A DNA stretch of 41,494 nucleotides from a virus. A program made the translations under genes and the position numbers. This document shows positions 11,418 through 38,721 of this stretch, one piece after another. The stretch lies in the UHGV virus genome UHGV-1357485. One strand, written 5' to 3'. The notes beneath the pieces were generated by a model. The model ran no database searches. It saw only the letters and a program-made list of their open reading frames with translations, and had not been told where the DNA came from. How positions within the stretch are numbered: position 1 is the first letter of the stretch; each line of letters opens with the position of its first letter.

Positions 11418-11423
11418 GGGTCA

Positions 11424-14257: not shown

Positions 14258-14264
14258 TGTCACC

Positions 14265-14543: not shown

Positions 14544-14813
14544 TCATTGCTTCATCTCCCTTTCCATTTCATCAATGTCAACGTCATCAGGAAGATGGGA
14601 GCAATACGCCGCTATACCATGATGATTTATCTCATACCCTTTGAACGTTACCATCTGGTGCGTAATCTCAACTTCGTTCAGGAATCCGTCATCGCATAAC
14701 TGCCTGGCTATTTTCGATTTGGTCTGGATTATTGGTAGTGCCTGTTCTTTCAAAGCGCATGATATTTGTGCATCCCATGCCTTTTCGAGAATGGCTAATT
14801 GTTTTTTATTCAT
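14544..14813 (-). CDS. hypothetical protein (89 aa)
   Basis: ORF track; immediately downstream of the helicase. Confidence 0.4.
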   Translation of the reverse strand: MNKKQLAILEKAWDAQISCALKEQALPIIQTKSKIARQLCDDGFLNEVEITHQMVTFKGYEINHHGIAAYCSHLPDDVDIDEMEREMKQ

Positions 14814-16249: not shown

Positions 16250-17129
16250 CGTGTTCACCCTCACGAACTTTCAGGTAGGTATTATCGTTAAGCAGGAAAT
16301 CAAATCCCTTTTTGTGCCAGACGGTTCCGCGTTGATGGTTTGGGCGCTCTTCGAACATCCATCGGCAATTTTCGCCTACGTAGCTCAAATAATTTCTCCA
16401 GTCCTGCATCGTGAACCCATGCCCGTCAAGCTGGCGGGTTATCACTCCGGCTTTGCGCCAGAACGTTCGGATCTGGTTTTTACGCTTGTCATTCAGTGCG
16501 CGGATTCTTGGCGCTTCAGGAAGGATTTCGTGGTAAGCATCGACAACATCCTGACAGCTAACGGAAGGTTTTTTCTTGTCAGACTTTTTGTCTGCTGCGG
16601 TACTCTCTAATACGTCAGTATTAGAGATATTATTTATATTATTGTTTATGGACAACCGTTGGACATCCGTTGGACAATCTCCCCTTAGAGCGGCGCCATT
16701 ACTGGGGTTTGCGTTGGACAACCGTTGGGCAACCGTTGGACAATTTTTTGCCTGAAAATCGTCATATTTAACAATTGTAAACAGGCTAAATTTCTTCCCC
16801 ATCGAGCAAATATTAAGCATCCCTTTCGACTCAAAAGTCCGTAATAAGCTCCGAACTTTGTTGTCTGGGATGAATGTTTCTCTGACCAGCGACGGGCGTC
16901 CAGTTATCATCTGACCGCGATCAACAGTTATCGGACCGATATCCGTATTGACGACAGTAGATTCGTGATTAGCCTTGAGGATTAAGTGAAGCCAAAGATG
17001 TACTGCCTGAGAGTCCTTATAGAGCCTGCTGTCCATAAACTGGCGGTGTATAGAGACATACCCCATACTGGATGCCTCCTGATGTTGTACAGGGTTATGC
17101 CTGTAATCAGCTAACTTAACGACGCCCAT
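16239..17129 (-). CDS. replication initiator, lambda O / P22 gene 18-like (296 aa)
   Basis: Precedes the helicase; iteron cluster and AT-rich tract lie inside the gene as in lambda O. Confidence 0.7.
   Translation of the reverse strand: MGVVKLADYRHNPVQHQEASSMGYVSIHRQFMDSRLYKDSQAVHLWLHLILKANHESTVVNTDIGPITVDRGQMITGRPSLVRETFIPDNKVRSLLRTFESKGMLNICSMGKKFSLFTIVKYDDFQAKNCPTVAQRLSNANPSNGAALRGDCPTDVQRLSINNNINNISNTDVLESTAADKKSDKKKPSVSCQDVVDAYHEILPEAPRIRALNDKRKNQIRTFWRKAGVITRQLDGHGFTMQDWRNYLSYVGENCRWMFEERPNHQRGTVWHKKGFDFLLNDNTYLKVREGEHDDR
16651..16745. repeat. origin of replication iterons
   Basis: Five or more copies of CCGTTGG(A/G)CA(A/T) at about 11-bp spacing in two clusters, flanked by an AT-rich tract at about 16620-16650. 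Confidence 0.7.
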
Positions 17130-17277
17130 GTTTCACTCCTGCTTTGGCTAGTCTGTAAACACCAACAAGGCGCTCTGCGAACGCCCTGTTATTTGCTGCG
17201 GCTACCACTAATCCCTCAGGTGAATCAGGGTGTCGAATCTCTTCTTTTTCCTGGTATTTCTTACGACGTTTTGTCAT
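17116..17277 (-). CDS. small basic protein (53 aa) between cII and the O-like gene
   Basis: ATG at 17277 preceded by AGGAG; stop overlaps the O-like start; hand-translated. Confidence 0.3.
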   Translation of the reverse strand: MTKRRKKYQEKEEIRHPDSPEGLVVAAANNRAFAERLVGVYRLAKAGVKHGRR

Positions 17278-17311
17278 AATTACTCCTGTGGATTGATCCA
17301 GTCTTTCTACA

Positions 17312-17590
17312 TCAGGCCTCGAAGAATTCGCCGTTCTTCGGGGCTTTTTCTTTTGTCAGCATTCTGGCTACTTTCTTAGCCAGTTCCGCCAACTCCTCGT
17401 CTTCAACACCCCATTCAAGAACAGCCAGAAGCATGGCCATCTTTGGGATAAAGCTGTCTTTCCATCGCGAAATTTGCGATTCATTAATCCCTAACGCGTC
17501 GGCAACCTTTCGCTGACCACGTACAGCAATTCGATTCAGGATGTTGCTTGTAATTGCATTCGCTTTCTTGCGAGTACTTGTAAGTTGCAT
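17312..17590 (-). CDS. cII: transcriptional activator CII (92 aa)
   Basis: ...SQISRWK...IPKMAMLLAVLEWGV... closely resembles lambda CII. Confidence 0.85.
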   Translation of the reverse strand: MQLTSTRKKANAITSNILNRIAVRGQRKVADALGINESQISRWKDSFIPKMAMLLAVLEWGVEDEELAELAKKVARMLTKEKAPKNGEFFEA

Positions 17591-17648
17591 ATGTAAGTAT
17601 TTCCTTAACTAATAAGAAGTTATGCGCATCAACTTATGCGCGTTGTAT

Positions 17649-17692
17649 TCCCGCATTTCGGCGGGAATGAGGACCATGGCTGTTAAAGAGCG
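17649..17692 (-). promoter_or_regulatory. nutR (boxA CGCTCTTTAA plus boxB hairpin)
   Basis: Between cro and cII on the minus strand; boxB is the reverse complement of the nutL boxB. Confidence 0.6.
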
Positions 17693-17698
17693 GTGTTA

Positions 17699-17893
17699 CT
17701 ATTTGTTTTTCTTGTTGCTTGGGAAAGGACGAACTTCCTCTCCAATCACACTGCCATCAGGCTTTACCGTAACCATAATGTTACGGCCTGCCAGAATGGC
17801 CTTGCTGATAGCGCACTGGATTACACCAAAGTCACTGGCTGCTTTAGCCTGTCCATGGATTTTGGCGTAATCGGCAAGTGTCATTCGAATCAT
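17699..17893 (-). CDS. cro: Cro repressor (64 aa from ATG 17893)
   Basis: [24 protein letters not shown]...VKPFPSNKK resembles lambda Cro. Confidence 0.85.
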
Positions 17894-17924
17894 ATGCACT
17901 CTCCGTTATTAACCATGAACAAAG

Positions 17925-17988
17925 AATACTACAGGTATTCAAAGCAATCAATACTCAGGGTATTTTTAGTTTAAGTACCTTAGCTATT
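17925..17988. promoter_or_regulatory. OR operator region (three sites) with divergent pR/pRM
   Basis: Three 15-bp near-palindromes of type AATAC-N5-GTATT at about 17925-17939, 17950-17964 and 17974-17988. Confidence 0.6.
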
Positions 17989-17999
17989 AGAATTAAGCT

Positions 18000-18716
18000 A
18001 TGGAAAATAAAAAATCACTGACGACAGAACAGCTCGAAGACGCTAAGCGGCTTAAGGCTTTGTATGAGTCAAAAAAGAAAGAATTGGGAATAACCCAATA
18101 CTCAATCGCTGATGAACTGGGTATCACCCAAGGAGCGGTAGGGCATTATCTTAATGGCAGAAACGCGCTAAACGTTGAGGTTGCATCTGGTTTTGCACGA
18201 TTGTTGCAAGTCTCAATTGCTGATTTTAGCCAGTCAATTGCTGCCAAGGTTGCAGAACAGGCAGAAAGCCTTAAGAGCGATGCCAACGTAAGGTATGCAG
18301 GGGAATACAGAGCAGGAAAGAGGTATCCGGTGTTAAGCAGTATCCAGGCTGGCTCGTGGTGTGAAGCATGCGAACCATACACCATTAAAGACATAGATGT
18401 TTGGCTTGAGTCTGACGCGCATATTCAAGGTAATGCGTTTTGGCTTAAAGTGGAAGGTGATTCAATGACGGCACCGGTTGGGTTAAGCATTCCAGAGGGA
18501 ACATTCGTTCTTTTCGATACCGGAAGGGAGGCGATCAACGGCAGCTTGGTCATAGCAAAACTTTCTGACTCTAACGAAGCAACATTCAAGAAGCTGATAA
18601 TCGACGGCGGAAATAAATACCTCAAGGGACTTAATCCTGCATGGCCTCTCGTGCCAATCAATGGAAACTGCAAGATTATAGGCGTTGCAATTGAGACAAA
18701 ACTAAGGCTGGTTTGA
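18000..18716 (+). CDS. cI: CI repressor (lambda-type, 238 aa)
   Basis: N-terminal HTH and C-terminal LexA/S24-type autocleavage domain (FWLKVEGDSM...FKKL...). Confidence 0.9.
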   Translation: MENKKSLTTEQLEDAKRLKALYESKKKELGITQYSIADELGITQGAVGHYLNGRNALNVEVASGFARLLQVSIADFSQSIAAKVAEQAESLKSDANVRYAGEYRAGKRYPVLSSIQAGSWCEACEPYTIKDIDVWLESDAHIQGNAFWLKVEGDSMTAPVGLSIPEGTFVLFDTGREAINGSLVIAKLSDSNEATFKKLIIDGGNKYLKGLNPAWPLVPINGNCKIIGVAIETKLRLV

Positions 18717-18733
18717 TCACGCAAGGGGCGATT

Positions 18734-19102
18734 ATGGTTGGAACCGCTATAGCAAGCTTTTTTGGGATGTTGGCAATCTCGACAATTTACGTCTTAGCGC
18801 ATGCTTTTATTGCGAAATCTCTATCAGAAAAAATAAGCCAGGCTTGGGCGCATAGATCAGCTCGTTTCATGATTCTTGTGATCATAGCAATACAAGGGAT
18901 ATCTGCATTTATCCTCTATGGATCAAGCTTATACCTATTGTATCAAGGCGCGACATTTACGCCTTACACCAGTGATTACGGAACTCTATACGATGGTAGT
19001 GAAGACATCACTGTGGCTTGGATCGTCTTTGGTTTATCTATGGCCGTGTCTGTTGTAGCAGACATCATTAAGGTAATTCTCGTCTTAACCTTCGCTGACT
19101 AA
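18734..19102 (+). CDS. lysogeny-operon membrane protein (about 122 aa, three predicted TM helices)
   Basis: Directly downstream of cI with AAGGGG before ATG 18734 (TTG at 18713 overlaps the cI stop); AT-rich; occupies the rexAB position. Confidence 0.5.
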   Translation: MVGTAIASFFGMLAISTIYVLAHAFIAKSLSEKISQAWAHRSARFMILVIIAIQGISAFILYGSSLYLLYQGATFTPYTSDYGTLYDGSEDITVAWIVFGLSMAVSVVADIIKVILVLTFAD

Positions 19103-19188
19103 CCCATAATCCCGGCAGCAATAGCTATCGGGATCCACTTCACATATCCCGCATAAAAATCACTGAACAAGCAGACAGCGAAAAAATA

Positions 19189-19273
19189 AATATCCTTTGT
19201 ATTCATTTGTTTATCATTATTTCATCAAAAATAAATACCTTGGGTATTTACACAATAAAATACCTACAGTATT
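19189..19273. promoter_or_regulatory. OL operator region (three sites) and pL
   Basis: AATATCCTTTGTATT, AATACCTTGGGTATT and AATACCTACAGTATT, same consensus as OR. Confidence 0.55.
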
Positions 19274-19321
19274 CTTTAGCCATCAGCAGGACGCTGGAAG
19301 CCAAACGGAACAGATTGGCAG

Positions 19322-19362
19322 GCTCTTTAACATTGATGGGATTGTCCCGCCGAAATGCGGGA
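19322..19362 (+). promoter_or_regulatory. nutL (boxA GCTCTTTAA plus boxB hairpin TCCCGC-CGAAAT-GCGGGA)
   Basis: Downstream of OL, upstream of N; same boxB as nutR. Confidence 0.55.
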
Positions 19363-19629
19363 ACCAAAGAGTAGTTGGCTTTGGGGTGTGGTGAAGCCAG
19401 CTAGTCACTGGCAAGTGCTTACCTACTGTTGAGCGGTGAAGCGCTCCCAACGCTAGCAATAGCGTGGACGAGATGGGGAGCCGCGGGCGATAAGGCCGCC
19501 ATAACGCGCACGTTGTCGCATGGAAAAATCGCTGGGGTGCCGGTTATACCCCTCCGAATGAGACTCAACAAGCTGGAGCTAGACTACCAGCCACCACACC
19601 ACCAAAGCTAATCATCTGAGGAACAGAAA

Positions 19630-19749
19630 ATGTTAGACATCATGACCAACCCAATTCTCGGTGGTTTAGTTACCACATTCGCCATCTGCTTCGGTTTCAC
19701 TATCTGGTCTGAAGTAGATGACTGGATGTGGGAACGCAAAAACAAATAA
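19630..19749 (+). CDS. small hydrophobic peptide (39 aa) in the pL leader
   Basis: GAGGA-N7-ATG; hand-translated MLDIMTNPILGGLVTTFAICFGFTIWSEVDDWMWERKNK; one predicted TM. Confidence 0.3.
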   Translation: MLDIMTNPILGGLVTTFAICFGFTIWSEVDDWMWERKNK

Positions 19750-19789
19750 TCATCGACACACAAGGATGTGCACCTACCCGGAGGTCAAC

Positions 19790-20062
19790 ATGACAGTAGT
19801 CATTACATATCTGGCTGACGATAACGCCAGATATCGCCGCAGAGCACGCAGACAGGCTCAACGTGAACAGGCAATGCAAGAACAGCGACTGGCGCGAAAG
19901 ATTGCGCTAAAGCTCTCTGGTTGCGTCAGAGCAGATAAAGCAGCATCACTCGGAAGCCTTCGCTGCAAGAAGGCAGATGAATGCAGTGGAAGTATTTGCC
20001 TGCCAAACGTAGCCATTTACGCGGCAGGCTACCGGAAATCAAAACAACTGACGGCGAGATGA
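19790..20062 (+). CDS. N: antiterminator N (P22 gene 24-like, 90 aa)
   Basis: GGAGG RBS; N-terminal Arg-rich motif NARYRRRARRQAQ; C-terminus ...LPNVAIYAAGYRKSKQLTAR resembles recalled P22 gp24. Confidence 0.75.
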   Translation: MTVVITYLADDNARYRRRARRQAQREQAMQEQRLARKIALKLSGCVRADKAASLGSLRCKKADECSGSICLPNVAIYAAGYRKSKQLTAR

Positions 20063-24559: not shown

Positions 24560-24682
24560 ATGTCTTGTCCAAAATGCGGTTCTGGAAATATTGCAAAAGA
24601 AAAAACAATGCGTGGATGGTCTGGTGATTATGTGTGCTGCGATTGCGGATACAACGACTCGGTAATGACTCCAACTTATTGA
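24560..24682 (+). pseudogene. zinc-ribbon small protein gene truncated by IS1 insertion
   Basis: GGAGG RBS, CPKCG...CCDCG; reading frame enters IS1 at 24661; original 3' end (about 59 aa total) resumes after the IS at 25438-25517. Confidence 0.55.
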
Positions 24683-25179
24683 TAGTGTTTTATGTTCAGA
24701 TAATGCCCGATGACTTTGTCATGCAGCTCCACCGATTTTGAGAACGACAGCGACTTCCGTCCCAGCCGTGCCAGGTGCTGCCTCAGATTCAGGTTATGCC
24801 GCTCAATTCGCTGCGTATATCGCTTGCTGATTACGTGCAGCTTTCCCTTCAGGCGGGATTCATACAGCGGCCAGCCATCCGTCATCCATATCACCACGTC
24901 AAAGGGTGACAGCAGGCTCATAAGACGCCCCAGCGTCGCCATAGTGCGTTCACCGAATACGTGCGCAACAACCGTCTTCCGGAGACTGTCATACGCGTAA
25001 AACAGCCAGCGCTGGCGCGATTTAGCCCCGACATAGCCCCACTGTTCGTCCATTTCCGCGCAGACGATGACGTCACTGCCCGGCTGTATGCGCGAGGTTA
25101 CCGACTGCGGCCTGAGTTTTTTAAGTGACGTAAAATCGTGTTGAGGCCAACGCCCATAATGCGGGCAGTTGCCCGGCAT
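24676..25179 (-). CDS. insB: IS1 transposase InsB (167 aa)
   Basis: Matches recalled IS1 InsB. Confidence 0.9.
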
Positions 25180-25373
25180 CCAACGCCATTCATGGCCATA
25201 TCAATGATTTTCTGGTGCGTACCGGGTTGAGAAGCGGTGTAAGTGAACTGCAGTTGCCATGTTTTACGGCAGTGAGAGCAGAGATAGCGCTGATGTCCGG
25301 CGGTGCTTTTGCCGTTACGCACCACCCCGTCAGTAGCTGAACAGGAGGGACAGCTGATAGAAACAGAAGCCAC
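25098..25373 (-). CDS. insA: IS1 protein InsA (91 aa)
   Basis: Matches recalled IS1 InsA (zinc-finger/HTH). Confidence 0.9.
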
Positions 25374-25579
25374 TGGAGCACCTCAAAAACACCATCATAC
25401 ACTAAATCAGTAAGTTGGCAGCATCACCCAACGACTCTAAAGACGCATTTGGAGAGCGTGGTAAAAACGAGTTTGTCAAAATTAATAAAGATCGCGAAGG
25501 CAACGGAAAAAGCTAATTTATTTATTCATATATGAAAACAATGTAACCAATATTCGAATTGAAGAACTGAAAGAACACC

Positions 25580-26086: not shown

Positions 26087-26287
26087 ATGCAACACGAACT
26101 ACAGCCTGATTCACTGGTTGATTTGAAATTCATCATGGCCGATACTGGCTTCGGTAAAACCTTCATCTATGACCGGATTAAGTCCGGGGACCTGCCTAAA
26201 GCCAAAGTTATCCACGGGCGAGCAAGATGGTTATATCGTGACCATTGTGAATTCAAAAATAAGCTCTTAAGCCGCGCCAATGGGTAA
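26087..26287 (+). CDS. AlpA-family excisionase / transcriptional regulator (66 aa)
   Basis: Small HTH protein of AlpA type immediately upstream of the P4-type integrase; GGAGA RBS. Confidence 0.7.
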   Translation: MQHELQPDSLVDLKFIMADTGFGKTFIYDRIKSGDLPKAKVIHGRARWLYRDHCEFKNKLLSRANG

Positions 26288-26536
26288 AATAGCGGGTAAA
26301 ATATTTCTCACATCTAAAAAACATCATTCCAATCAATCCCCTGCCGCGCCAAGTAGATGTCTGCAGGGGACACCATTTATCAGTTCGCCACCATCCGTGC
26401 CAGTCCGCAAAATCCCCTGAATATCAAGCCTTCCGTATATTCACGGTTCGTCATGGTTCGCGTCAGATCGTTGACAGCCGCACACCATGACGGGTAAAAA
26501 GTGGATAAAATAATTTTACCCACCGGATTTTTACCC
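26281..26536. repeat. GGGTAAAA direct and inverted repeats around the att core (candidate arm-type Int/Xis binding sites)
   Basis: At least three direct GGGTAAAA copies and two inverted TTTTACCC copies in the xis-int interval. Confidence 0.4.
26361..26375 (+). other. attP core candidate: 15-nt match to the 3' end of tRNA-Arg(CCU) argW (CTGCAGGGGACACCA)
   Basis: Identity to the recalled argW 3' terminus, about 160 bp upstream of an IntS-like integrase in the same orientation. Confidence 0.5.
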
Positions 26537-27694
26537 ATGCTCACCGTTAAGCAGATTGAAGCAGCAAAGCCGAAAGAAAAACCATACCGCCTTCTCGATG
26601 GTAATGGCCTGTACCTTTATGTCCCTGTGTCAGGGAAAAAGGTATGGCAGCTTCGCTACAAGATTGACGGTAAGGAGAAAATCCTGACCGTCGGAAAATA
26701 TCCGCTTATGACTTTGCAGGAGGCAAGGGATAAAGCATGGACCGCGAGGAAAGACATCTCGGTTGGCATCGATCCAGTAAAAGCGAAAAAGGCTTCGTCT
26801 AACAACAATTCCTTTAGCGCCATTTACAAGGAATGGTACGAGCACAAGAAGCAAGTCTGGTCAGTAGGCTATGCAAATGAACTTGCAAAAATGTTTGATG
26901 ACGACATTTTACCCATCATCGGCGGCCTTGAAATTCAGGATATTGAGCCGATGCAACTTCTTGAAGTAATCCGCAGATTTGAAGATCGCGGTGCAATGGA
27001 GCGAGCCAACAAAGCCCGCAGAAGATGCGGCGAGGTTTTCCGTTACGCTATTGTCACTGGTAGGGCTAAATATAACCCGGCACCTGACCTTGCTGACGCC
27101 ATGAAGGGATACCGCAAGAAAAACTTCCCGTTTCTTCCTGCAGACCAGATCCCGGCATTTAACAAAGCACTGGCAACATTTTCAGGAAGCATCGTATCGC
27201 TCATTGCGACCAAAGTTTTACGCTACACAGCCCTCAGAACAAAAGAGCTTCGTTCCATGCTATGGAAGAACGTCGATTTTGAAAACAGGATTATCACCAT
27301 CGACGCCAATGTGATGAAGGGACGCAAAATTCATGTGGTTCCTATGTCAGACCAGGTAGTTGAACTTCTCACTACGCTAAGCTCAATCACTAAACCAGTG
27401 TCAGAGTTTGTTTTTGCCGGGCGCAACGATAAGAAGAAGCCAATCTGCGAGAACGCGGTATTACTTGTGATCAAACAAATCGGCTATGAGGGTCTGGAAA
27501 GCGGTCACGGATTCAGGCATGAATTCAGCACGATTATGAACGAGAACGAATGGCCTGCTGATGCTATTGAAGTGCAACTGGCACATGCCAACGGCGGTTC
27601 TGTGCGTGGAATTTACAACCACGCTCAGTATCTTGATAAGCGCAGAGAAATGATGCACTGGTGGGCGGACTGGCTTGATGGGAAGGTGGAGTAG
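26537..27694 (+). CDS. int: tyrosine integrase, P4/IntS-type (385 aa from ATG 26537)
   Basis: N-terminal arm-binding region MLTVKQIEAAKPKEKPYRLLDGNGLYL...; C-terminal catalytic ...HGFRH...; resembles recalled E. coli IntS. Confidence 0.9.
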   Translation: MLTVKQIEAAKPKEKPYRLLDGNGLYLYVPVSGKKVWQLRYKIDGKEKILTVGKYPLMTLQEARDKAWTARKDISVGIDPVKAKKASSNNNSFSAIYKEWYEHKKQVWSVGYANELAKMFDDDILPIIGGLEIQDIEPMQLLEVIRRFEDRGAMERANKARRRCGEVFRYAIVTGRAKYNPAPDLADAMKGYRKKNFPFLPADQIPAFNKALATFSGSIVSLIATKVLRYTALRTKELRSMLWKNVDFENRIITIDANVMKGRKIHVVPMSDQVVELLTTLSSITKPVSEFVFAGRNDKKKPICENAVLLVIKQIGYEGLESGHGFRHEFSTIMNENEWPADAIEVQLAHANGGSVRGIYNHAQYLDKRREMMHWWADWLDGKVE

Positions 27695-27867
27695 TTATTA
27701 CAACGATTCTTATAAAAAAGAAAAGCCTTGCACATATAGCAAAGCTTTTCACTTCTCGGGATTTCTTACACCAAGAAACCCTCAACAATAACAAAATGCA
27801 ATTTTATATGTTAACTACATATGCATTTCATTAAAACCAATCATAAATGCTTATCATACTTTAATTG

Positions 27868-28995
27868 CTATAATTGATTGCCTTCTATTTTTTCAACTCG
27901 AGTGGTTGAAACATCATTCTTAAATCCACTCCACCATTTTCTTAGCTTATTGTTTATTGGCTTTTCAAAAAACAAATACATCATTATTGATATAAATAAT
28001 GAAGAAAACAGAGCCATTACTATAAATTTAATTACACTTATAGCACCAAGACCAGAAACATTAAAGAACTTGCTCAATGTACTGATTACTATAGTGTGGA
28101 CCAAGTAAAATGAAAAAGAAGCATCACCTAAAAGTATCATAACTTTATTTGATATTATTTTTGAAATAATACCACCATTAAACGAAAACACTAATATTGA
28201 AAAGGCCATTGATGGTATAAAAAGCGCATCATACTGTAATCCATTGCCATTTTGACTTTTTGCCACCATATAGACAGACATTAGGATAAAGACTACAGAT
28301 GATATTTCAGCAAATGATAGAACTAAATATGACGGCTTTGACTTAAACTCAAAATATAGTTTACACAATATAATACCGATTAAAAAGTCAGGCAACCTAT
28401 TAAAAGGGTTTATGTAAAAGAACCAGTGAGAGAACGCATCACTAATTTCCCCATAGCTTGCCATGTAAATAATATTAATTAAAATTAACGCAGCAAACAA
28501 AGCGAGCATTCTTTTTCGCGCAAAAATTATAAAACAAAAAGAAACATAAAAGAACATTTCTACAGAAATGCTCCAGGATACTGCATTGAATGAGAAATAG
28601 TCTTCCTTATCTACTGAGTAAGACTGAATTAATAGTGCATTTTTTATTATAGACAATATATTTGGTGAGAATCCACCACCTAATATTGAGTGTCCAACTA
28701 TAAACACAGTCAAGCAAAGCAAATGTACTGGATATATTCTAAATACTCGATGCGCAAGAAAATCAACAAAACTTCCGTTGCCATTACGCAATGAAATAGT
28801 AAAACTATATGTTAATATAAACCCAGATAAAATAAAAAAGAAAGTAACACCAGAATACCCAAGTTTAAAATATTCAAATGATGAAGCAAAATCTCTATTA
28901 CTTGAATTTTGTATTACCGCCATGTGGCTAAAAAACACCCCAAGGGCTGCAAATGCCCTTAGGGATGTCAGGCTATTTAGTCTTTCTGCGCGCAT
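27868..28995 (-). CDS. acyltransferase-3 family membrane protein, probable O-antigen acetyltransferase (lysogenic conversion)
   Basis: N-terminal ...RLNSLTSLRAFAALGVFFSHM... and about ten TM segments; AT-rich; between tailspike and att/int where Sf6 carries oac and P22 carries gtrABC. Confidence 0.75.
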   Translation of the reverse strand: MRAERLNSLTSLRAFAALGVFFSHMAVIQNSSNRDFASSFEYFKLGYSGVTFFFILSGFILTYSFTISLRNGNGSFVDFLAHRVFRIYPVHLLCLTVFIVGHSILGGGFSPNILSIIKNALLIQSYSVDKEDYFSFNAVSWSISVEMFFYVSFCFIIFARKRMLALFAALILINIIYMASYGEISDAFSHWFFYINPFNRLPDFLIGIILCKLYFEFKSKPSYLVLSFAEISSVVFILMSVYMVAKSQNGNGLQYDALFIPSMAFSILVFSFNGGIISKIISNKVMILLGDASFSFYLVHTIVISTLSKFFNVSGLGAISVIKFIVMALFSSLFISIMMYLFFEKPINNKLRKWWSGFKNDVSTTRVEKIEGNQL

Positions 28996-29104
28996 GATAC
29001 ACCTATGTTTTAATGCACAAAAATGCAACAAAAGATTGATGATACCATAAGCAACAGAAAAATCACATGATCACTTACTCACGTTCAACTTGTACCATCA
29101 GAAT

Positions 29105-31645
29105 CTAAATTATCTGCGTCACTGACAATGCTTTCTTTAACACCACTCCTCCGCTCGTTGTTGCTCCCTTTGAGTACTCAAAGGAGATATTGGCTGAAAT
29201 GCCAAGATTCTCATCAGGACAATACCACCAAATTCCAATAGGGAGCACAGATGCCTTGTCATAACTGACAGTGCGATCATACGACGACTGGTACCCATTG
29301 AAGTCATACCATTTAAACCCAGTAATTGCGTTGCCAGCAATCATGCAATCAGTGCTCATAACTACACCAAACGCATTCTCAATATTAGATGCAACTAATA
29401 TGGCACTCATTGCGATATTCCTAAAGCTACATGACGTCACAGAGTATCCATTTGTATTTGCGTTTATAACTCCTATTTCTCCAAGGAAAGTCGTTGTCCT
29501 TATAGATCCATTAAAAAAAGATGTTGATTTTGTCCCTCTAAGACACACTCCCACATCAGACTCAAACGCGCTATCAGATATATCGATATACGTTGAACTT
29601 ACTGATGGATTATTCTTATAAAAGCTAACTCCGTAATTTAGATTATTGAAATTACAACTATTAACCCTTACAGATGCTACTCTTGCATCATATAAATAAA
29701 GGCCTGCCGTCATCCCTTCAAGGTGTGTGTCGTTTAATGGAAATACTGCATTATCCCCAGCCTCGTTAGGATCATTCATTAATGTTTTAGGGTTTGTGAA
29801 TTTATTTTTAATTATCGATGTAAACTCATCACAAAAAAAGTCATGTGATGCGCTATTAATTACCTTAAACCCTGAGAATCCGAATGGCTTCCCACCAGAG
29901 ATTATTGCCAAACAAAATGCTTGCGCCCCACCGCGTATTCTATATTGATTTGATTTTGATTCAAATTTAAAATTGCCTTGTAATGTTGAGTTGGTGATAC
30001 AACTAAAAGAGTTACCTATGTATGATACGTTATTATTATATGATGACGTTATGCTATAGCTGTTTACTTTATTTCCAGATATAAGAACATTATCACAAAA
30101 AAATTGAGCACATATCCCTGATTTTGATGTAACAACATTATCAGACATTATGCTATGAATAACCATTGAGTGAAAAGTTATGCCCCAATGACCATGGCTA
30201 TACGAAGTTGATATTAATGGATCGTTTATTATATTTCCAGTGCAGTTAACATAACAAACTTGCCTATATACTCCTATTGTTGAATCATTCAAACCAAGAG
30301 TTGAGCAAATGTTATCTTTAATAGAGCAAACAGAACTTGATGTGGCATAGCTAAACATAGCTTCTGGGATATTCCCTGTTAATCTATTCCTCTCGAATCT
30401 ACCAGAATAACAATAATATCGCATCTCAACATGGACATTATGGAAGTTACAACCAATCACTTCTGGCTCGATCTGAGACAAAAGCATGATTCTTCTTAGA
30501 GCATTGCTACTGCTTTTCATCGTCACACCATCTTTAATTTTGAATGGCGTAAGGTTACCTGTTGGGAACCCAAATTTCGCAGTCCCAGCCACCTGATTTA
30601 CCACCAGAGGTTGCGCCAAAATAGCCTTATTGGTAGTTGTATGACCTATAATTTTTGTTACCTGAATGAACTGAGATTGGTATCCATTCAAGTTAAGTGT
30701 AAGTGCCAACCCATCTATGCTGTCAGCAGGTGTGGTGGATTTTTCCGCTTCATCAATACAGAACGGATATCCATTATCAATGACGACATATTGCCCTGTG
30801 CGATCTACACCATCGAGATATACCTCAGAGTGCCCTGCAGATGCAGGCTGAGAAAAAACTGTCATAGTTGGGAAGTCATATGGCTCAACCCTAAAATGAT
30901 TACCCAATGTTATTGTGCCACGACCATATATACCTTTTGCCCCGGCTGGCGCTGTATAATCTGTTGTGGTGGTAAGGTCAGCTCCTGTAATGTTTACTTC
31001 TTCTCCGAAGTTAAACGCTGCCGTCAGTGCCTGCTCGGTTGTTACAAACCTATTGGTGTAGTTAAGGATATGGTTTAAATCATATCCGTTAAGATTCCCT
31101 ACAGACTTCCAGTTTGAATCTGGTGAACTACCAGGAGGGACAGTTAATGGAACTGACAGATCACCAGTATAAATGTAATACCACCCAGTTGATGAATAGA
31201 ATAGTGCCTGATATTTACTTGTTATCGTTGCACCAGAAGCAAAGGATACATTTTGCAGGCGTTTATAAACATTAAATCTAAAATTTTCATTAGCGTATAA
31301 AGAAAACTGATCTGGGTCGTACCCTAAAACATTAGGGAAGTAGAACTGCTGCATGCCGTAAGAATCGTATACCGCCATAGAATGGCCTTTCACAGTTACG
31401 AATTTGGCAATCTGCCCGTTATATACAGGATACCCGCCAGAGTTAATGATGATTGGCTGTGCAACAGGAACGTGAGAACCATCTTCGTTCTCCACATAAA
31501 CCTGAATCTGGTTTTCAGGATTTACTGGGTCAGTATCAATTTTACCGATATAAATTTTGCCATTGGCTACGGCTTTAAAAGAACGCGCCATAGTGAAGAG
31601 TTGCGAAGGCATCGACACGATCACATTGGCTGTAATGTCTGTCAT
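29105..31645 (-). CDS. tailspike protein: P22 gp9-like head-binding N-terminus plus divergent beta-helix receptor-binding/depolymerase region (846 aa)
   Basis: N-terminus [13 protein letters not shown]...[23 protein letters not shown]... resembles P22 tailspike; distal two-thirds AT-rich, Asn/Ser/Cys-rich. Confidence 0.85.
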
Positions 31646-31703
31646 TTAATTTGCTCCAGATGAAAGGAATCGCCGCAGCATGGCTACGGTGAATTTTGGG
31701 CAT

Positions 31704-31734
31704 AAAAAACCCAGCCGAAGCTGGGTTGGTTTTT
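31704..31734. terminator. bidirectional intrinsic terminator upstream of the tailspike gene
   Basis: AAAAAA-CCCAGC-CGAA-GCTGGG-TTGGTTTTT, works on either strand. Confidence 0.55.
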
Positions 31735-31748: not shown

Positions 31749-32474
31749 TTAGGCTGCGGTAGAAACATTAACCAGATTTCTCAATACTTCAACTCCTTTT
31801 GAGTTGTAGCGGAACGCCTCTACCTGTTTGCTGGAATGCGCAGATTTATCTAGGAAGAACTTGCCGTACTGCTCAGTTTTGAGGTTGTTTGCGTTAGCAA
31901 TGCGACCAATCTTGTTGGCCGTTACTCCCAGCTGCTCTGCAACCTCCCCTGCTGAGTAGTAATGCTCTTCTATTGCTGGAAGAGGTATTGCATTAAAACC
32001 AACGATCGGGTTGATTATGCTTGCTGCCGCAGTCTGCTTTGCTTCCGGCGCAAGATTTGGCATCAAATCGAACAGATTGGTAACAGCGTCAACCGTCATT
32101 TTCAATGTTCGCGCCTGGCGATACTCAACAAGTCCACTCGCTGATTTACCGCTTTTAATGTGCGCTTCCTGCATACTTTCAAGTTTGTCTACAAGTGTTC
32201 GGCGAACTGCTTTAGATTCGCGAGCAGCAACACGAAGCGCCTGCTTGATAGTCATGGAGATAACATCAATGTCAGCCCCGTTTTTCCGACCTACACTTTT
32301 TGTGTAGGTCTCGCCTTCCAATTCATCCTCAATTTTCTCGATGAATTTGTTGTTACGTACTGATGGCTCTCCACATAACTTGCGAGCTTCATTAACCATC
32401 ATCAGAAGACTTTGGCTGTCAATGGTTTTATCCGTGACAACGGATCCGATGTTTGCTACATTCTTAAAAGTCAT
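31749..32474 (-). CDS. antirepressor C-terminal (ANT/KilAC-like) module, 241 aa; in frame with the upstream Ant ORF across a TGA
   Basis: C-terminal ...HYYSAGEVAEQLGVTANKIGRIAN... resembles ANT domain; track ORF starts directly after the Ant stop in the same frame. Confidence 0.45.
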   Translation of the reverse strand: MTFKNVANIGSVVTDKTIDSQSLLMMVNEARKLCGEPSVRNNKFIEKIEDELEGETYTKSVGRKNGADIDVISMTIKQALRVAARESKAVRRTLVDKLESMQEAHIKSGKSASGLVEYRQARTLKMTVDAVTNLFDLMPNLAPEAKQTAAASIINPIVGFNAIPLPAIEEHYYSAGEVAEQLGVTANKIGRIANANNLKTEQYGKFFLDKSAHSSKQVEAFRYNSKGVEVLRNLVNVSTAA

Positions 32475-32561
32475 TAGGCATTCCTTATGTGGTAGTAAGG
32501 GTGTGACATAGGCCGCCAGCAGCACACTGGCGGTTTTCTTTTGCGCCGTCCTGTGCACCAA

Positions 32562-33200
32562 TCAATTAATCCATTCCTCGCCGCGAAGTTTTTCCAGCAT
32601 TGGCTGAGCGTTCTTTACGACAAAATTGTTGGTATCAAGATTCTTCATTTCACGAAGAAGCGATTTCTTGGTTTCTTCTGACATGTAGCGAGTCTCATAT
32701 GCAATATCGTAAATCCTTCCTGAAAGCTCAGAACCAATTTGCTTCATTCCTGGGTAGATGTGTTTGCACATTTGTTGACTCTTCTCCATCCACAATTGTA
32801 AGTAGCAGAGATTAACCAGCTCTTCGTCAGTGAACTGTTTTGCAATCGGTGAGCATTCTGCCTGCCGCTCCAAAATATCCAGCACCCAGCGGCGGAACTC
32901 TTTAGCCTTGGGCGTAGAAGCAAACATCGCCACCAAGTGAGCGCCTCGGAGCGAGTAAACTCTGACCGATTTGTTACGTAAGCTATTGTTTATCCCGTTG
33001 ACCTTCATATTGAGGGTCAATGACATTGAGTCGGAAAACTCGTCAGCATTACGGGCATAAATTTGGCTGATGGCATCAGTTTTTTTATAGCCGAGAGCCT
33101 TAGCTAGTTCGGTGGAGGTAAACCAGATAGACCCACCCTCTGTTACAGGGTTAAAGGTGAATCCTTGGAAGTTATAATCTGATTTTGCTACAATGTTCAT
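32562..33200 (-). CDS. ant: antirepressor Ant, BRO-N/AntA N-terminal module (212 aa)
   Basis: ...WFTSTELAKALGY...AKEFRRWV... resembles AntA/Bro-N; AAGGAAA RBS before ATG 33200; follows arc as in P22 immI. Confidence 0.6.
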   Translation of the reverse strand: MNIVAKSDYNFQGFTFNPVTEGGSIWFTSTELAKALGYKKTDAISQIYARNADEFSDSMSLTLNMKVNGINNSLRNKSVRVYSLRGAHLVAMFASTPKAKEFRRWVLDILERQAECSPIAKQFTDEELVNLCYLQLWMEKSQQMCKHIYPGMKQIGSELSGRIYDIAYETRYMSEETKKSLLREMKNLDTNNFVVKNAQPMLEKLRGEEWIN

Positions 33201-33273
33201 GTTAGTTTCCTTGCATACGGTTACTGACATAGAGGCCCGGTTTGTGTTCGCGCACTGCCGGGCTTCACTATTT

Positions 33274-33447
33274 TTACTGGGCATTAACTCTTTCCTCTCT
33301 CAGGCTTTTAGCCAGTCGCTGCACAATCGCAGAGTTGATAGAAATTCCATCCATTTCAGCAACACGTCTAATCTCCTCCTTCATTCGCGCTGGCAAACGA
33401 AGCTGGAAACTTTGACTTTTACGACCTGTGTAAAGCACATCTTTCAT
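33274..33447 (-). CDS. arc: Arc-like ribbon-helix-helix repressor (57 aa)
   Basis: ...FQLRLPARMKEEIRRVAEMDGISINSAIVQRL... RHH signature; GGAGG RBS before ATG 33447. Confidence 0.7.
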   Translation of the reverse strand: MKDVLYTGRKSQSFQLRLPARMKEEIRRVAEMDGISINSAIVQRLAKSLREERVNAQ

Positions 33448-33469
33448 AAGTAATCCTCCCACAATGATA

Positions 33470-33485
33470 CCAACTTGGTTCTAGA
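33470..33485. promoter_or_regulatory. 16-bp perfect palindrome TTGGTTCTAGAACCAA in the divergent arc/mnt promoter region (candidate operator)
   Basis: Perfect inverted repeat between divergent RHH genes; coordinates approximate. Confidence 0.45.
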
Positions 33486-33558
33486 ACCAATTTAACACCA
33501 TTTATTTTGATGTCAAGTTGGTGCTATTGTTTAGCGAACATCTTTACGTTGAGGTCAT

Positions 33559-33879
33559 ATGAGCAAGTTCCCTAGTCATGAAATGGATAGGTTCAATATC
33601 AGGCTTCCGGCAGGAATGCGGGATGCTATAGCTGAACGAGCCAAACGTAACGGCAGATCAATGAACTCAGAGATTGTTCAGATACTGGAAGATGCCTTGA
33701 ATGCAGAAAATACACTCGGGGAAATAGCAGATAAAATCAACAGCGTCTCGGTTCCGCTAAATGTTGATGCGCTAGTTCAACTTCAAGCCCAGGTTATCGC
33801 CATGCAAAAAGAAATACAGGAAAAGTTCAGAGAGCAGAACGAAAAGTTGAGAGAACTGCTAAACAAAAAACCCACCTGA
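33559..33879 (+). CDS. mnt: Mnt-like ribbon-helix-helix repressor (106 aa)
   Basis: ...FNIRLPAGMRDAIAERAKRNGRSMNSEIVQILEDAL... resembles P22 Mnt; divergent from arc-ant. Confidence 0.7.
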   Translation: MSKFPSHEMDRFNIRLPAGMRDAIAERAKRNGRSMNSEIVQILEDALNAENTLGEIADKINSVSVPLNVDALVQLQAQVIAMQKEIQEKFREQNEKLRELLNKKPT

Positions 33880-34170: not shown

Positions 34171-34536
34171 TCACTCCGGCTTTTTGATATGTCGCTCGCA
34201 GAACTCAACAAGCCTGCTCATTAAGTAGCAGTAAGTCTCGTTGGCTCTTCCTGGTTCAACATCAACACCGACCCTTGAGCAGATATCGAATGCCATGTGA
34301 GCGCACTCATGGGCAATAGTAGATAGTTTGCCATTGAACACACCTATCACATGCAAAACACCATTCTCGCTGCTCATTGTATGAGACGCTCCGTTGGCAT
34401 CCGAGTCCTGCACGTCCACGCCAAGTTTTTGATGCAGGCGTTGCCATTCTGGAAAGTCTCTGCAAAACACAATCGTACCGCTCTCAAAGAGCGGTACGAG
34501 CATCTTTGGTACGTTTCCAATGTTAACTTTTTTCAT
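34171..34536 (-). CDS. hypothetical protein with HECAH (HExxH-like) motif (121 aa) at the P22 sieA position
   Basis: ATG 34536 preceded by AGGA; motif IAHECAHMAFD; follows the ejection genes on the late strand. Confidence 0.45.
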   Translation of the reverse strand: MKKVNIGNVPKMLVPLFESGTIVFCRDFPEWQRLHQKLGVDVQDSDANGASHTMSSENGVLHVIGVFNGKLSTIAHECAHMAFDICSRVGVDVEPGRANETYCYLMSRLVEFCERHIKKPE

Positions 34537-34566
34537 GGTATCCTGCGAAAAACTAAGGAGGTTGGT

Positions 34567-34956
34567 GTGAAGCAATTTCTTGCTGCTATGTTCTTATTCA
34601 TATCTTTTGGGGCTACAGCAGAGTGCTGGGTCGTTGGAGATATGCGCGGAATAAGCTATTCAGAGCGAAATAATTTCCATCCGGAAGAAGATGGTTTTAG
34701 TGGAACATTTATCATTAAGACAAGCGGTGAAGATGCCAGCATCACATATTCTGGGACGGATGCTGGCGGCATGGCTTACAAAGCATTGTCTAAAAACTCC
34801 ATCATAGGAATCGGCGCGAATGGCGAAACTCAACGAGTTATCGACTCATGGGTAATACATCCTAATGGAACAGTTTTAATGTCGAAAACCATTTCCGGTT
34901 ATGGAAATATGGATTCAACCAAAGCTTTTGTTGGAAAAGTAAAAAGAAAATGCTAA
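34567..34956 (+). CDS. secreted protein with signal peptide (129 aa, GTG start)
   Basis: AAGGAGG 5 nt upstream of GTG 34567; N-terminal K-then-hydrophobic stretch ending ATA-E (signal-peptidase-like). Confidence 0.55.
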   Translation: MKQFLAAMFLFISFGATAECWVVGDMRGISYSERNNFHPEEDGFSGTFIIKTSGEDASITYSGTDAGGMAYKALSKNSIIGIGANGETQRVIDSWVIHPNGTVLMSKTISGYGNMDSTKAFVGKVKRKC

Positions 34957-34966
34957 GGATGTTGAT

Positions 34967-35173
34967 ATGAAAAAATTTACTATTGGGTTATTTGCAATCT
35001 TTTTACTTGTTTTGTCTGCATTTACTGGTTATGGGGTTAAATATTCATCAATAACTGACGGTAACAAGATTGAATGTAAATACCTAAGCGCTTCTGGAAA
35101 ATTCTCCAGAAATTATTGGTACTCGGATAATGGGATCATGGGGATTAGCAATTGTCCTTTAGTTGACAGATAG
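34967..35173 (+). CDS. small secreted protein/lipoprotein candidate (68 aa)
   Basis: MKKFTIGLFAIFLLVLSAFTG... signal peptide; AT-rich; 10 bp after the previous gene. Confidence 0.5.
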   Translation: MKKFTIGLFAIFLLVLSAFTGYGVKYSSITDGNKIECKYLSASGKFSRNYWYSDNGIMGISNCPLVDR

Positions 35174-35233
35174 CCATCCTTGGCTTTATGGGGATTAACA
35201 TGGTAACGGTTGGTTGGATTATCTCGTTCCTTG

Positions 35234-37387
35234 TTACATCTTTTGGTCGCCGTCACTGGCTGTAGTATCTTGCTGAGATAACCATGTAATAATCCCAGTG
35301 CGAGCAATGGTTTTTGCTTCATCTGTTGATAGGGTTTTCTCCCATCTCTTAAATACCCCAGATTGCATCAGTTTCCTTTCTATTGCGCGTCTCACTTCTG
35401 CTCTGTCTACTGGTGCGTTTTGCAGGCGAAATAGCATTGATTTAAACTCAGGAGAAGACAGTAGAGCATCAGCAGCCTTTATCCTGCTTGTTTTCCCTGA
35501 CATCAATGCGGACGTTATCACCCCTGTTGCACCTACACCAGGAAGACCAGATAAGCTTGTAACACCTTCCGCCGCAGCAGCTTTTGAGGCTATTCCATAA
35601 ATTTTTGCTAGACTACCCTTTTCCTTCAGAAAGTTATTAACTTGCTGATCCACAAGGCTGCTAGCATACTGCTTACCAGTATTGAGTCTATTCATAGCCT
35701 TGGCTGCTTGATAAATCGTATCAAGGCGCTTTGATGCATCTGTGCCAATAGCATCACGGAGAGCCTTCATATTGGCCCCATTGCGTGACATTCCGTTATA
35801 CCATTTTACAAATCCATCAACCCCTAATTGCTGACCTGGTGATTTAGCATAGCTGGTAAATGCTTTATTCATTGAGGTGAGCGCAACTTCCTGCCGCATA
35901 TCCTTTGGAATTGACTTCATTAATTGCCTAAAGTCACCACCGTTTCCTTTTGCCATATTAACAACGGCACTTTCAACTTTTGGAATTGCTGATTGCTGAA
36001 GTTTTCTACCCAAAACGGTTACGGCATCATCTTCAATGGATTTTCGTGTTTTTACCAACTCCTTACCAAGCGTCCATAACTCCCCTGCGCCATATTTTTC
36101 TGCGACAGCCTGTTGGTCATCTGTTATAGCTGCATATAACTTTTTAAGAACACCTGTTTCTTCATCCTTGAATGGGCCAGAGCCTTTGCCAATAGCTTGC
36201 CCAACCTGCTTTCTAGCGAGATCTAAACGCCCATACGTTGGCAAGGTGTTTGGATCAAGTCGGTTCAATGTCCGCTTCATTATTGGAGATAATTCATCAA
36301 TTCCACCTATGTCATCAGCAAAATCCTCTAAAAAATTCAATGTATTGGTTGCCTCAATACGGTCTCTTACTGGAACCTTTTCGGCAATTTTGTTGTAGAT
36401 GTTATCTGACTGATTTTGTAATGATGAAATGGTTTTATCAAAATTATCTGCAAGCCTGTCAGAAACCAGTTGCTTATCAAGGTTTCCCCCAAATGAAGTT
36501 ATCATTTCATCAGCTTTTCTTCCTAATTCAGTAATAAAGCGCTTATGCGCCTCACTAATCTCTGTTCCAGGGAGGCTTGCCACTGCATTATCAAGAGCCC
36601 TGACAGCAGGATTATTAGAGATCATTCCTGGAGTGGCATAATTTTCCAGTTCTAGCTCACGGATGGCATTTATCGCGTTAAAATCAGGATTAACTTCATC
36701 GGCGAAACCTTGAATAGCTCGTTGTCCGCCAATAAATTTATTATCCATTGCGCCAGCAGCTTTCTTTAACGTTGCTTTAGATGATTTACTCCCCATCCCT
36801 ACGGATGAGCGATAAATATCCCCGGCACTATTTTTAATTTTTCCTGCAATCTTCCCAAGCGCTGGACCAACAATCTCGGCTACAGGGCCAGCCACAGCGC
36901 CAATAGCAGCGCCGGAAGCAACATCGCTATTTGTTCCATTGGCTACAATAGCCCCTTCTCCAGCACCAAGCCCTGCGGCGGCAGCCAGCCTTGCCGCTCC
37001 TTTCGGAACCTGAGAAATAATCCCACCACCACTAACAAATGGCGCTGCTTGTCCAACAAACTCACCAACATCTTGTGCGGTTGATGGTTTTGCCGCTAAC
37101 TTCTGCTGTAGAGACTGAATTGCGGCTTGCTCTTCTGGTGTCATATCCTGAAACAGGCCAACACCTTTACCAACATCCATCAATCCACTGAGAACGCCAT
37201 ACATAAAACGGTCGAAACCGTTAGCATTATTAACAACATTTTCCTGTCTGGAATTTTCCTCTGGTGAAACCAAAGGAGATTGCTGCTGTTCTGGTTGGGA
37301 ATCAAGCACAAAGCCATCAGGAAGTTGTGAGTTATCAGGCTGTTCATCCAGAACAAACCCCTCTGGTAAACCTACATTGGTTGCCAT
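35234..37387 (-). CDS. ejection (internal virion) protein, P22 gp16-like (717 aa)
   Basis: Position and order 26-14-7-20-16; Ala/Gly-rich. Confidence 0.65.
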
Positions 37388-38721
37388 TGTCCGTTCCTGT
37401 AAATAATTTTCTGACCAGTTTTAGGATTTTTCGCGGTCATACCTTCTCGAAATGTTTGACCGCCAGATGTTGCTTGTTGTGTCTGTTGTTGCGCAGGCTG
37501 CTGAATATCTTCATACAGCTTGGCTTTTCTGGATTGCAATTGCTTAGTTAGTCCGCTGGGGAGAGAATCTCCATAAGTTGAAAGATAATCATCCATTTGC
37601 TGATTAAACTTTTCGCCTTCAGTATTTGCCATCAGTTTTGAGGTGTTGATTAAGTCCTGGACTTGCTCATTATTCAGCATCTTGCCGTTAGATAATTGGC
37701 TAACATAGTTACCAAGTGTGCCGAATATTCCATCAGTGCGTTTTACCTGCACTTGCTCACCTTCGCGTACCACAGATTGCGGATCCAGCGATTTCATATA
37801 GTTGAAAATCATTCCCAACTGCGCGGCTGGAGTGTTGCGCTTCCCAAGGGCTTGTAGGTTGTCAGAAGCACTGCGCATTGCAGAATAATTCTTTGAGAAC
37901 CCATTAATATCACTATTCAGATCTCGAACAAGTTTTGGGTCAATCTTTCCGCTTTCCTGTTGTTTCATCCCTAATTCCTGCAACTTCAGGGCTACGTTAT
38001 CATTATGCATTTGTGCCCGCTGAGCCCTGTCTAGTTGAGCGTTCTGGATATTTGCCCATCCTCTCGCATTCTCCATGTCAGCCTGACGGATGCTTTCATC
38101 CAATCGCCCTTTCTCAAGTTGGCGACCAGCCATCTTGTCCTGAACAGCAAACGCCTTTTCTGGTCCAAGCGCACCGAGAGACATAGTAGTCAACATGTGT
38201 GATAGCTGCTCTGGATTCTGGATACCTGTCTGAATCATCCAGTCAGCATTCGCCCCCACGCGATTTAACCTGTCCTTGTTGTCAGTAATGAATTTACTGT
38301 AGGCTTCCGGTCCCTGAGAAAGAGCGACGTTAGCCCTCATGGCTAAATCGCCCATATCGTTGCGTTGCTGCTCATTAAGACCGGAAAACGCCTGTTGTGC
38401 CTGCGCCACAAACGCTGGATTTTCCTGGGCAAACTTAAATAGTCCCGATGGATCACCAGAAGCCCATGCATCAGCGTGAACCTTATTGAACGCACTAATA
38501 GCTTTCTGTTGCTGTTCCTGATTGTAAATATCAGCAACTCCAGCCAGACCACGTAACGCGGTCAGGCCAACGTTATTTGCACCTGAGCGAGCCAGTTCAT
38601 TGTTTTCGCGGATCAGACCAAGCGTTGCGTTAATGTCGCTTGCCTTTGGCGCATTCTCATTTTGCGTACCGATGCCAGCCAGAAAACCACCAGAATTAAT
38701 ACCCTGTTGCCACGTAGCCAT
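37372..38721 (-). CDS. ejection protein, P22 gp20-like (449 aa)
   Basis: Position and size. Confidence 0.65.

Follow-up and report, generated by a model that had tools for sequence, protein, structure and literature searches.

The viral genome UHGV-1357485, a stretch of 41,494 nt referred to here at its full length as the window, carries on its minus strand an 846-aa tailspike gene followed directly by the gene of an acyltransferase-3 (AT3) membrane enzyme. Together, the two products probably form a receptor-recognition and receptor-masking conversion pair, with the host O-antigen as the most likely target. The window is a complete P22-like (Lederbergvirus-type) temperate coliphage genome in its circular form, and the spike joins a P22-type anchor to a foreign receptor-binding module. 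This arrangement is of the textbook Sf6/BTP1/phiV10 type, a likeness absent from the first-pass annotation, which had proposed from the sequence that a mosaic tailspike is paired with a lysogenic-conversion enzyme modifying the spike's own receptor. Specific to the present case are a rare, uncharacterized module and the apparent movement of module and enzyme as one cassette, the enzyme slot of which is refilled by non-orthologous acyltransferases. The features on which the argument rests are the following:

29105..31645, minus strand: tailspike gene, 846 aa (open reading frame [ORF]; PF09008), a mosaic of P22-type anchor and foreign receptor-binding module
31304..31645, minus strand: head-binding (anchor) domain, spike residues 1-114
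29105..31303, minus strand: distal receptor-binding/depolymerase module (putative), spike residues 115-846
28996..29104, minus strand: spacer of 109 nt between spike and acyltransferase genes
27868..28995, minus strand: AT3-only membrane acyltransferase, 375 aa (PF01757; phrog_3333)
27868..31137, minus strand: putative mobile cassette of spike receptor-binding module, spacer and acyltransferase, supported by collinear blastn alignments

The mosaic tailspike

The N-terminal end of the spike is a P22-type head-binding domain, as first claimed: PF09008 matches residues 1-113 (E=1.3e-64), residues 1-114 are 87% identical to residues 1-114 of Sf6 gp14, and the domain matches the head-binding domains of the Sf6 and P22 spikes in the PDB (7sg7, 8tvr, 1lkt). 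At the nucleotide level, only this end matches other P22-like spikes (84-91%; HZ41, N7, CUS-3, HK620 and Sf6). The protein is 99% identical to the spikes of E. coli P22-like prophages located at argW (P0001/L004/L014-16/L022). Among these siblings the synonymous substitution rate (dS) is 0.06-0.27 in the head-binding domain vs. ~0 in the distal part, a contrast that marks the domain junction as a point of recent recombination and thus recombinogenic. Two substitutions, R317L and D485G, are private to the window spike when it is aligned with those of four sibling prophages, the latter beside the invariant H486/W487; both were considered as inactivating changes and rejected, since those alignment columns vary in the family. 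The differences among siblings within the distal module are nearly all nonsynonymous (4-7 nonsynonymous vs. 0-1 synonymous), unlike those in the head-binding domain; the numbers are small, and the excess may reflect fine-tuning of specificity or relaxed constraint.

Beyond the anchor, base and residue composition change. The GC content is 46.1% in the window, 47.1% in the integrase gene and 43.5% in the head-binding part, vs. 38.2% in the distal spike (36.8% over its last 1.5 kb; 31.8% at third codon positions, GC3) and 31.4% in the acyltransferase gene (GC3 26.6%). In 300-nt windows, GC falls to 0.28-0.34 within the cassette vs. 0.38-0.57 in the rest of the profiled region, a drop that exceeds sampling noise by far. 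The enrichment of the distal spike in Asn, Ser and Cys that had been pointed out earlier is likewise real but moderate: 8.9%, 10.8% and 2.3% (17 Cys), respectively, vs. 6.8%, 6.8% and 0% in the head-binding domain.

The distal module is rare. Among 50,697 phage records, its 731 residues have a single homologue, the spike of Hafnia phage TS33 (58% identity), and the module forms 12 clusters among 5.8 billion proteins. An exhaustive HMMER scan of 1.84 billion cluster representatives returned four full-length and two distant representatives; the remaining matches, among those listed, cover only anchors carried by homologues. Searches of the distal spike against the PDB (as single sequence and as profile), Pfam, NCBIfam and PHROGs gave anchor or neck matches only, and coverage of window positions 27700-31700 by any complete E. 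coli genome or INPHARED phage does not exceed 16%. With no near-identical annotated DNA, the specificity of the spike could not be read off a characterized relative. The only known relatives of the module, the TS33 spike (WQY91224.1) and the proteins P0002-P0012, are 37-78% identical to it over ~710 aa, differ from the window spike in their N-terminal anchors and chassis and are all annotated as hypothetical; none of them has a known receptor or specificity.

These relatives support the swap postulated in the first-pass annotation. The module begins at about residue 118-135, and the same ~710 aa occur at 58-78% identity on four other anchors: a phiV10/epsilon15-type anchor (L008), a PF18668 anchor in siphovirus-type prophages (L006, L010), the anchor of a myovirus-type prophage in Lelliottia (L005) and that of Jersey-like virulent siphoviruses (TS33, L009). 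Versions at only 37-41% identity are found in another Jersey-like phage (L020), in a siphovirus-type prophage (L023) and in L019, a 71-kb phage contig with a portal gene of the SU10 type, where the stretch examined shows no integrase; for P0003 there is no contig on record. Judged from these comparisons, the distal spike is a horizontally swapped module.

Structure prediction agrees with the beta-helix that had been expected of this region. An AlphaFold model built as a monomer on a 12-sequence alignment has a mean predicted local distance difference test (pLDDT) score of 71 and is confident in most of the neck (~135-255 of residues ~118-255) and along a long run of short beta-strands (~365-755), which establishes, at the level of a model, a right-handed parallel beta-helix at ~365-755. 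The top structural neighbors of the model include two capsule depolymerases, the Klebsiella K1 lyase 7w1c and the K64-1 S2-4 protein 9k4a, and three carboxylates within the helix, E407, D454 and D518, are invariant. As to chemistry, the module could be a hydrolase or a lyase, or could bind its glycan only. Two segments are modeled with low confidence, residues 258-363 and the C-terminal ~772-846 (75 residues with pLDDT <50). The first of these (30557-30874), modeled at pLDDT ~30 and sited between neck and beta-helix, is strongly conserved in all 12 homologues, with D278, D290, D308, D311, H335 and K357 invariant, and could be an inserted domain.

The adjoining acyltransferase

The neighboring gene encodes the AT-rich acyltransferase-3 membrane protein that had been recognized in the sequence. 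The listed ORF, 27868-29031 on the minus strand, begins at a TTG at 29031; the true start is probably the internal ATG at 28995, which is used by a 99%-identical database protein (P0013) and by all orthologues. The product matches PF01757 (Acyl_transf_3) over profile positions 3-325 of 326 (E=1.5e-28; 100.3 bits vs. a cut-off of 31) and the O-acetyltransferase family phrog_3333 (E=6.9e-82). Hydropathy peaks indicate ~10 hydrophobic segments, and the protein has no SGNH domain (no PF19040). Its AlphaFold2 model is all-helical (pLDDT 81); a fold search with this model gave no significant match in the PDB and no solved AT3 structure, the best hit being the GWT1 acyltransferase with a template-modeling score of 0.37. 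Mutagenesis of OafA, OafB and Oac has identified three essential motifs, R/K-X10-H in transmembrane helix 1 (TMH1), FFXISG in TMH2 and RXXR in TMH3 (PMC7448272, PMC9833829). The corresponding motifs R13-X10-H24, F53FILSG58 and R83VFR86 are all present in the window enzyme and conserved in all orthologues; among 24 homologues, H24, R83, R86, F53, S57 and G58 are invariant, and R13 is at least 90% conserved. The ratio of nonsynonymous to synonymous substitution rates (dN/dS) between orthologues and between cassettes is 0.06-0.09. By this measure the enzyme is intact and under strong purifying selection, and thus seems neither inactive nor decaying.

Within the AT3 family, the enzyme lies apart from the best-known phage members. 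It is 25% identical to Sf6 Oac over 157 aa (E=2e-7) and shows essentially no similarity to phiV10 Oac; its nearest phage-encoded relative is gp49 of TL-2011b (42% over 360 aa). Sequence comparison thus places it outside the Sf6 Oac orthologue group (Oac, OacB, OacC, OacD), in a different AT3 lineage of the phrog_3333/TL-2011b gp49 type. An orthologue with 58% identity was also observed in a 2.4-Mb metagenome-assembled chromosome (L012, 8001-9167), flanked by EAL/fimbrial genes and a TonB receptor, with neither a spike gene nor any phage gene closer than 8 kb.

The spacer contains a candidate extended -10 element (TGGTATCAT) and the Shine-Dalgarno sequence AGGTG ahead of the ATG at 28995, and it is identical in the sibling L004. 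Scans of the spacer found no terminator between the two genes and no convincing phase-variation signal. Comparison with L008 and L010 revealed no clearly conserved promoter in it, and sigma-70 scan sites were no more numerous than in shuffled sequence.

Pairing of spike and enzyme, and its alternatives

The spike module and the acyltransferase stay together when the rest of the phage changes. Single unbroken blastn alignments at ~70% nucleotide identity join window positions 28105-31137 to the epsilon15-like L008 and 28105-31120 to L010, a siphovirus-type prophage of Enterobacter cloacae, whereas the far-side neighbor of the acyltransferase differs in each chassis (integrase in the window, holins in L008, an S24 peptidase in L010). 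Between L008 and L010, the spike modules are 92% and the acyltransferases 90% identical; between the window and either of them, the values are 76-78% and 56%, so that module and enzyme, as their sequences indicate, diverge congruently. Moreover, an 846-aa spike lies immediately upstream in 22 of the 22 contigs that encode an intact enzyme.

The slot beside the spike can also be occupied by other enzymes. In L005 (the Lelliottia myovirus-type prophage) and in L006/L007/L021 (siphovirus prophage with the L010 chassis), similarity ends at the end of the spike gene, and the slot holds a convergent gene for a 618-aa AT3-SGNH enzyme, 23% identical to the window enzyme; the two copies share 75% identity. 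A convergent AT3 ORF likewise lies next to the 41%-identical spike of L023. The virulent carriers TS33, L009, L019 and L020 have no acyltransferase (0/4); the 384-aa spike neighbor in L019 was considered for this role and rejected as a fiber-like protein. Thus, an acyltransferase, from at least three AT3 lineages, adjoins the spike in six of six distinct temperate contexts vs. none of four virulent ones. The clearest instance of such variation lies in L010 (5342-9119) and L006 (8001-12460), which share one chassis and have 81%-identical spike modules, with a codirectional AT3-only enzyme in the former vs. a convergent AT3-SGNH enzyme in the latter; on the evidence of these sequences, this is a direct replacement of the putative masking enzyme at one slot.

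Well-studied phages offer precedents for such pairs. Sf6 is P22-like, has the same anchor, the same order of spike, acyltransferase and integrase and the same attP/argW-type integration module, and its Oac, likewise AT3-only, shares the R-X10-H, FFxISG and RxxR motifs with the window enzyme; O-acetylation blocks the phage's own endorhamnosidase (PMC9558356). It differs in that its receptor-binding module is unrelated (no alignment past residue 114), its Oac has 333 aa vs. 375 aa in the window enzyme, and its oac gene, which is convergent with the spike gene, is annotated with a promoter and a terminator of its own, whereas the window genes are codirectional. BTP1 is again a P22-like prophage with an acyltransferase gene adjoining that of the spike, and there the enzyme protects the lysogen's O-antigen from the phage's own spike, blocks infection and lowers readsorption (PMC4413052). 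The BTP1 spike belongs to the P22-type endorhamnosidases and has a known specificity, and GtrC of BTP1 is an AT3-SGNH fusion, 26% identical to the window enzyme; BTP1 serves best as a mechanistic model and corresponds to the AT3-SGNH version of the cassette (L005, L006). In the Uetakevirus members phiV10 and TL-2011b, an AT3 O-acetyltransferase gene comes immediately after the spike gene, and the annotation of phiV10 oac states that it acetylates the O-antigen of the host and "functions in superinfection immunity". Their receptor-binding modules are unrelated to that of the window, and the cassette copy in L008 sits on a phiV10/epsilon15-type anchor (66%). More generally, E. coli phage spikes combine genus-level anchors with exchanged glycan-specific C-terminal modules shared by Lederberg-, Uetake- and other viruses (Virol J 2023, PMC10408124); that paper contains 0 occurrences of acetyltransferases, does not cover the window module and does not describe co-transfer of a masking enzyme. 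Exchangeable glycan-specific modules on genus-level anchors and spike-adjacent O-antigen-modifying enzymes are thus already established.

Based on the precedents of Sf6, BTP1 and phiV10, the window enzyme is proposed to acylate the glycan that the spike recognizes. The P22-type head-binding domain would plug the chimeric spike into the virion, and the acquired beta-helix module would bind and probably cleave a host surface polysaccharide, most likely the O-antigen. The AT3-only enzyme of the inner membrane would take an acyl group, probably acetyl, from cytoplasmic acyl-CoA through a pore (R-X10-H and RXXR motifs) and place it on the spike's own target polysaccharide during export, and the modified glycan would no longer be a substrate or ligand of the spike. 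Such masking would shield the lysogen from superinfection and its own O-antigen from spike made upon induction, prevent the loss of released virions by readsorption to sibling cells and change the serotype of the host. Spike module and acyltransferase appear to be passed on and swapped together, as one AT-rich cassette of ~3.2 kb.

The O-antigen pair remains the reading that we consider probable, and the same logic would hold for another glycan, in which case the spike would be a depolymerase of capsule or exopolysaccharide (K-antigen, colanic-acid-like or other) and the AT3 enzyme would acylate the capsule. We regard this version as rather unlikely, with several observations in its favor. The P22-like phage CUS-3, which has the same anchor as the window spike, couples a K1 endosialidase spike with the capsule O-acetyltransferase NeuO; capsule depolymerases (7w1c, 9k4a) are among the top structural neighbors of the spike model, whose fold would be compatible with a capsule receptor, and homologues occur in Enterobacter, Lelliottia and Hafnia. 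Furthermore, AT3 enzymes modify many glycans besides O-antigen (PMC9558356). A coincidental neighborhood, in which the acyltransferase would be an independent moron in a cargo slot that alters a glycan to the benefit of the host (immune evasion or defense against other phages) and has nothing to do with the phage's own spike, seems to us improbable. The end of the late operon beside int/att is a common moron site, the L012 orthologue stands alone in a chromosome, a C-terminal fragment of the enzyme is kept without spike in E. coli O55:H7/O157:H7 (see below), and AT3-only and AT3-SGNH enzymes are interchangeable beside the same spike family. However, the far-side neighbor changes with each chassis (integrase, holin, S24 peptidase) and yet the junction of spike and acyltransferase remains collinear, the divergence of the two is congruent, and three AT3 lineages were independently recruited to the same slot while virulent carriers lack the enzyme. 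Collinearity, co-divergence and the counts of temperate and virulent contexts together argue for functional coupling over a chance moron. That the acyltransferase is silent or non-functional, a decaying passenger, is very improbable: the spacer scans gave no convincing promoter and a truncated fusion form is fixed in O55:H7/O157:H7, but the reading frame of the window enzyme is full-length with all catalytic motifs intact, the protein is 99% conserved in 22 contigs, and purifying selection between cassettes is strong.

Several points weigh against the proposed O-antigen pair. On the side of the spike, residues 258-363 and 772-846 of the model appear unreliable, E407, D454 and D518 are candidate catalytic residues only, and the identity of the glycan is one that we infer. 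On the side of the enzyme, sequence similarity to the characterized Oac proteins is only remote, and the solitary L012 orthologue implies that the enzyme can persist without a spike. Since the gene is codirectional with that of the spike and separated from it by neither a terminator nor a clearly conserved promoter, its expression from a repressed prophage is likewise something we infer, and most of its expression could fall in the late phase of lytic growth. The pairing itself is not one-to-one, as L010 and L006 combine the same chassis and module with an AT3-only and an AT3-SGNH enzyme, respectively, and the context counts (six vs. four) are small and not phylogenetically independent. Thus, of the earlier proposal that the enzyme modifies the receptor of the adjoining spike, the linkage of the two genes has been strengthened by their collinearity in three chassis, their congruent divergence and the context counts, whereas action on the same receptor is not proven.

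A wider proposal, which we put forward more tentatively and rate at somewhat short of an even chance, is that module and enzyme form a "recognize-and-mask" cassette that selection has moved as one unit among unrelated temperate lineages (P22-like, epsilon15-like and siphovirus-type), that non-orthologous enzymes (AT3-only, AT3-SGNH) can take over its masking slot, and that the O55:H7 ancestor of O157:H7 harbored a copy at argW.

Genome context, chromosomal remnants and significance

The remainder of the genome agrees with a temperate, P22-like origin. IME10 and HZ41 cover 70-72% of window positions 1-20000 at 97% identity, and the gene order is ejection proteins, immI-type genes, terminator, spike, acyltransferase, terminator, convergent IntS-type integrase and attP, so that the spike gene lies downstream of the ejection proteins and the immI region as in the P22 layout. 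The neighboring features are:

37372-38721: Inj_translocase ejection protein (by Pfam)
31749-33879: immI-type genes, Arc/Mnt and Bro-N/P22_AR_C antirepressor-like (by Pfam)
31708..31727, minus strand: terminator-like hairpin upstream of the spike gene
27720..27750, minus strand: terminator-like hairpin and T-run downstream of the acyltransferase gene, before the convergent integrase gene
26501..27694, plus strand: IntS-type tyrosine integrase (PF00589, PF22022, PF13356), convergent with the acyltransferase
26362..26376, plus strand: attP core CTGCAGGGGACACCA, 15 nt identical to the tRNA-Arg (argW) 3' end of E. coli O157:H7
26087-26287: 66-aa ORF without a Pfam match, on the other side of attP from the integrase
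24661-25428: complete IS1 with InsA (25098-25373), InsB (24676-25179) and 23-nt terminal inverted repeats

The integrase probably starts at 26537, which gives 385 aa as in the siblings L004/L014-16, and its region also matches intS of O157. Similarity to integrated prophage copies and to the chromosome stops at window position 26361. The attP core lies between the 66-aa ORF and the integrase gene, which identifies the window as the excised circular form and not a prophage. A temperate phage with integrase, attP and an AT3 enzyme gene adjoining that of the spike thus has the composition of a conversion module. The sibling prophages, found in several E. coli assemblies and one IMG/VR contig, are 98-99% identical over integrase, acyltransferase and spike and are integrated at argW beside yfdC-mlaA-fadL.

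Three further observations concern regions outside the pair. Upstream of the spike gene the siblings vary, with the Arc/Mnt and antirepressor-like immI genes in the window, P63C and HNH genes in L004 and none in L014; L004 6262-7712 and window 31749-33879 differ, and the block of spike, acyltransferase and integrase is constant. The IS1 element, on the early-region side of the phage genome, is bordered by a 9-bp target-site duplication, CAACGACTC (24652-24660 and 25429-25437). Between the immI-type genes and the gene of the gp16-like ejection protein lie two ORFs of 134 aa and 201 aa (34171-34956 and 34800-35250), which overlap on opposite strands and have no Pfam match; a local GC dip to 0.35 adjoins them, and the pair may be a moron.

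Traces of a related prophage persist in E. coli chromosomes. The last 488 nt of the acyltransferase gene, the spacer that follows and the integrase gene are 97-99% identical to the argW locus in 309 of 5,426 complete E. coli genomes; the serotype-labeled strains among these are O157:H7 or O157, plus O55:H7 (CB9615, DEC5A). The remnant coding sequence at argW next to intS (window 27700-28355; L001 6001-7306) encodes 378 aa and is annotated as "phage DNA ejection protein". In this product, a deletion has fused an Inj_translocase (gp20-like) N-terminus to residues 215-375 of the acyltransferase (161 residues, 98.8% identity), and phrog_28221 appears to represent this chimera. A P22-like prophage with this acyltransferase was thus resident, and already deleted, before the switch from O55 to O157, and the remnant gives only a hint about the identity of the receptor. 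The fusion also explains the mis-annotated ejection protein in these 309 genomes.

Our current understanding of how such systems work is unchanged by these findings. They add a rare depolymerase-type spike module and its presumed masking enzyme to the catalogue of receptor-binding proteins of E. coli and Enterobacter phages, with uses in host-range prediction, serotyping reagents and phage engineering. Co-transfer of the cassette and refilling of its slot make a clean comparative case that a temperate phage requires a form of receptor masking that fits the spike it carries. If this is true, the acquisition of a new depolymerase spike would oblige a temperate phage to gain the matching antidote, much as in an immunity pair.

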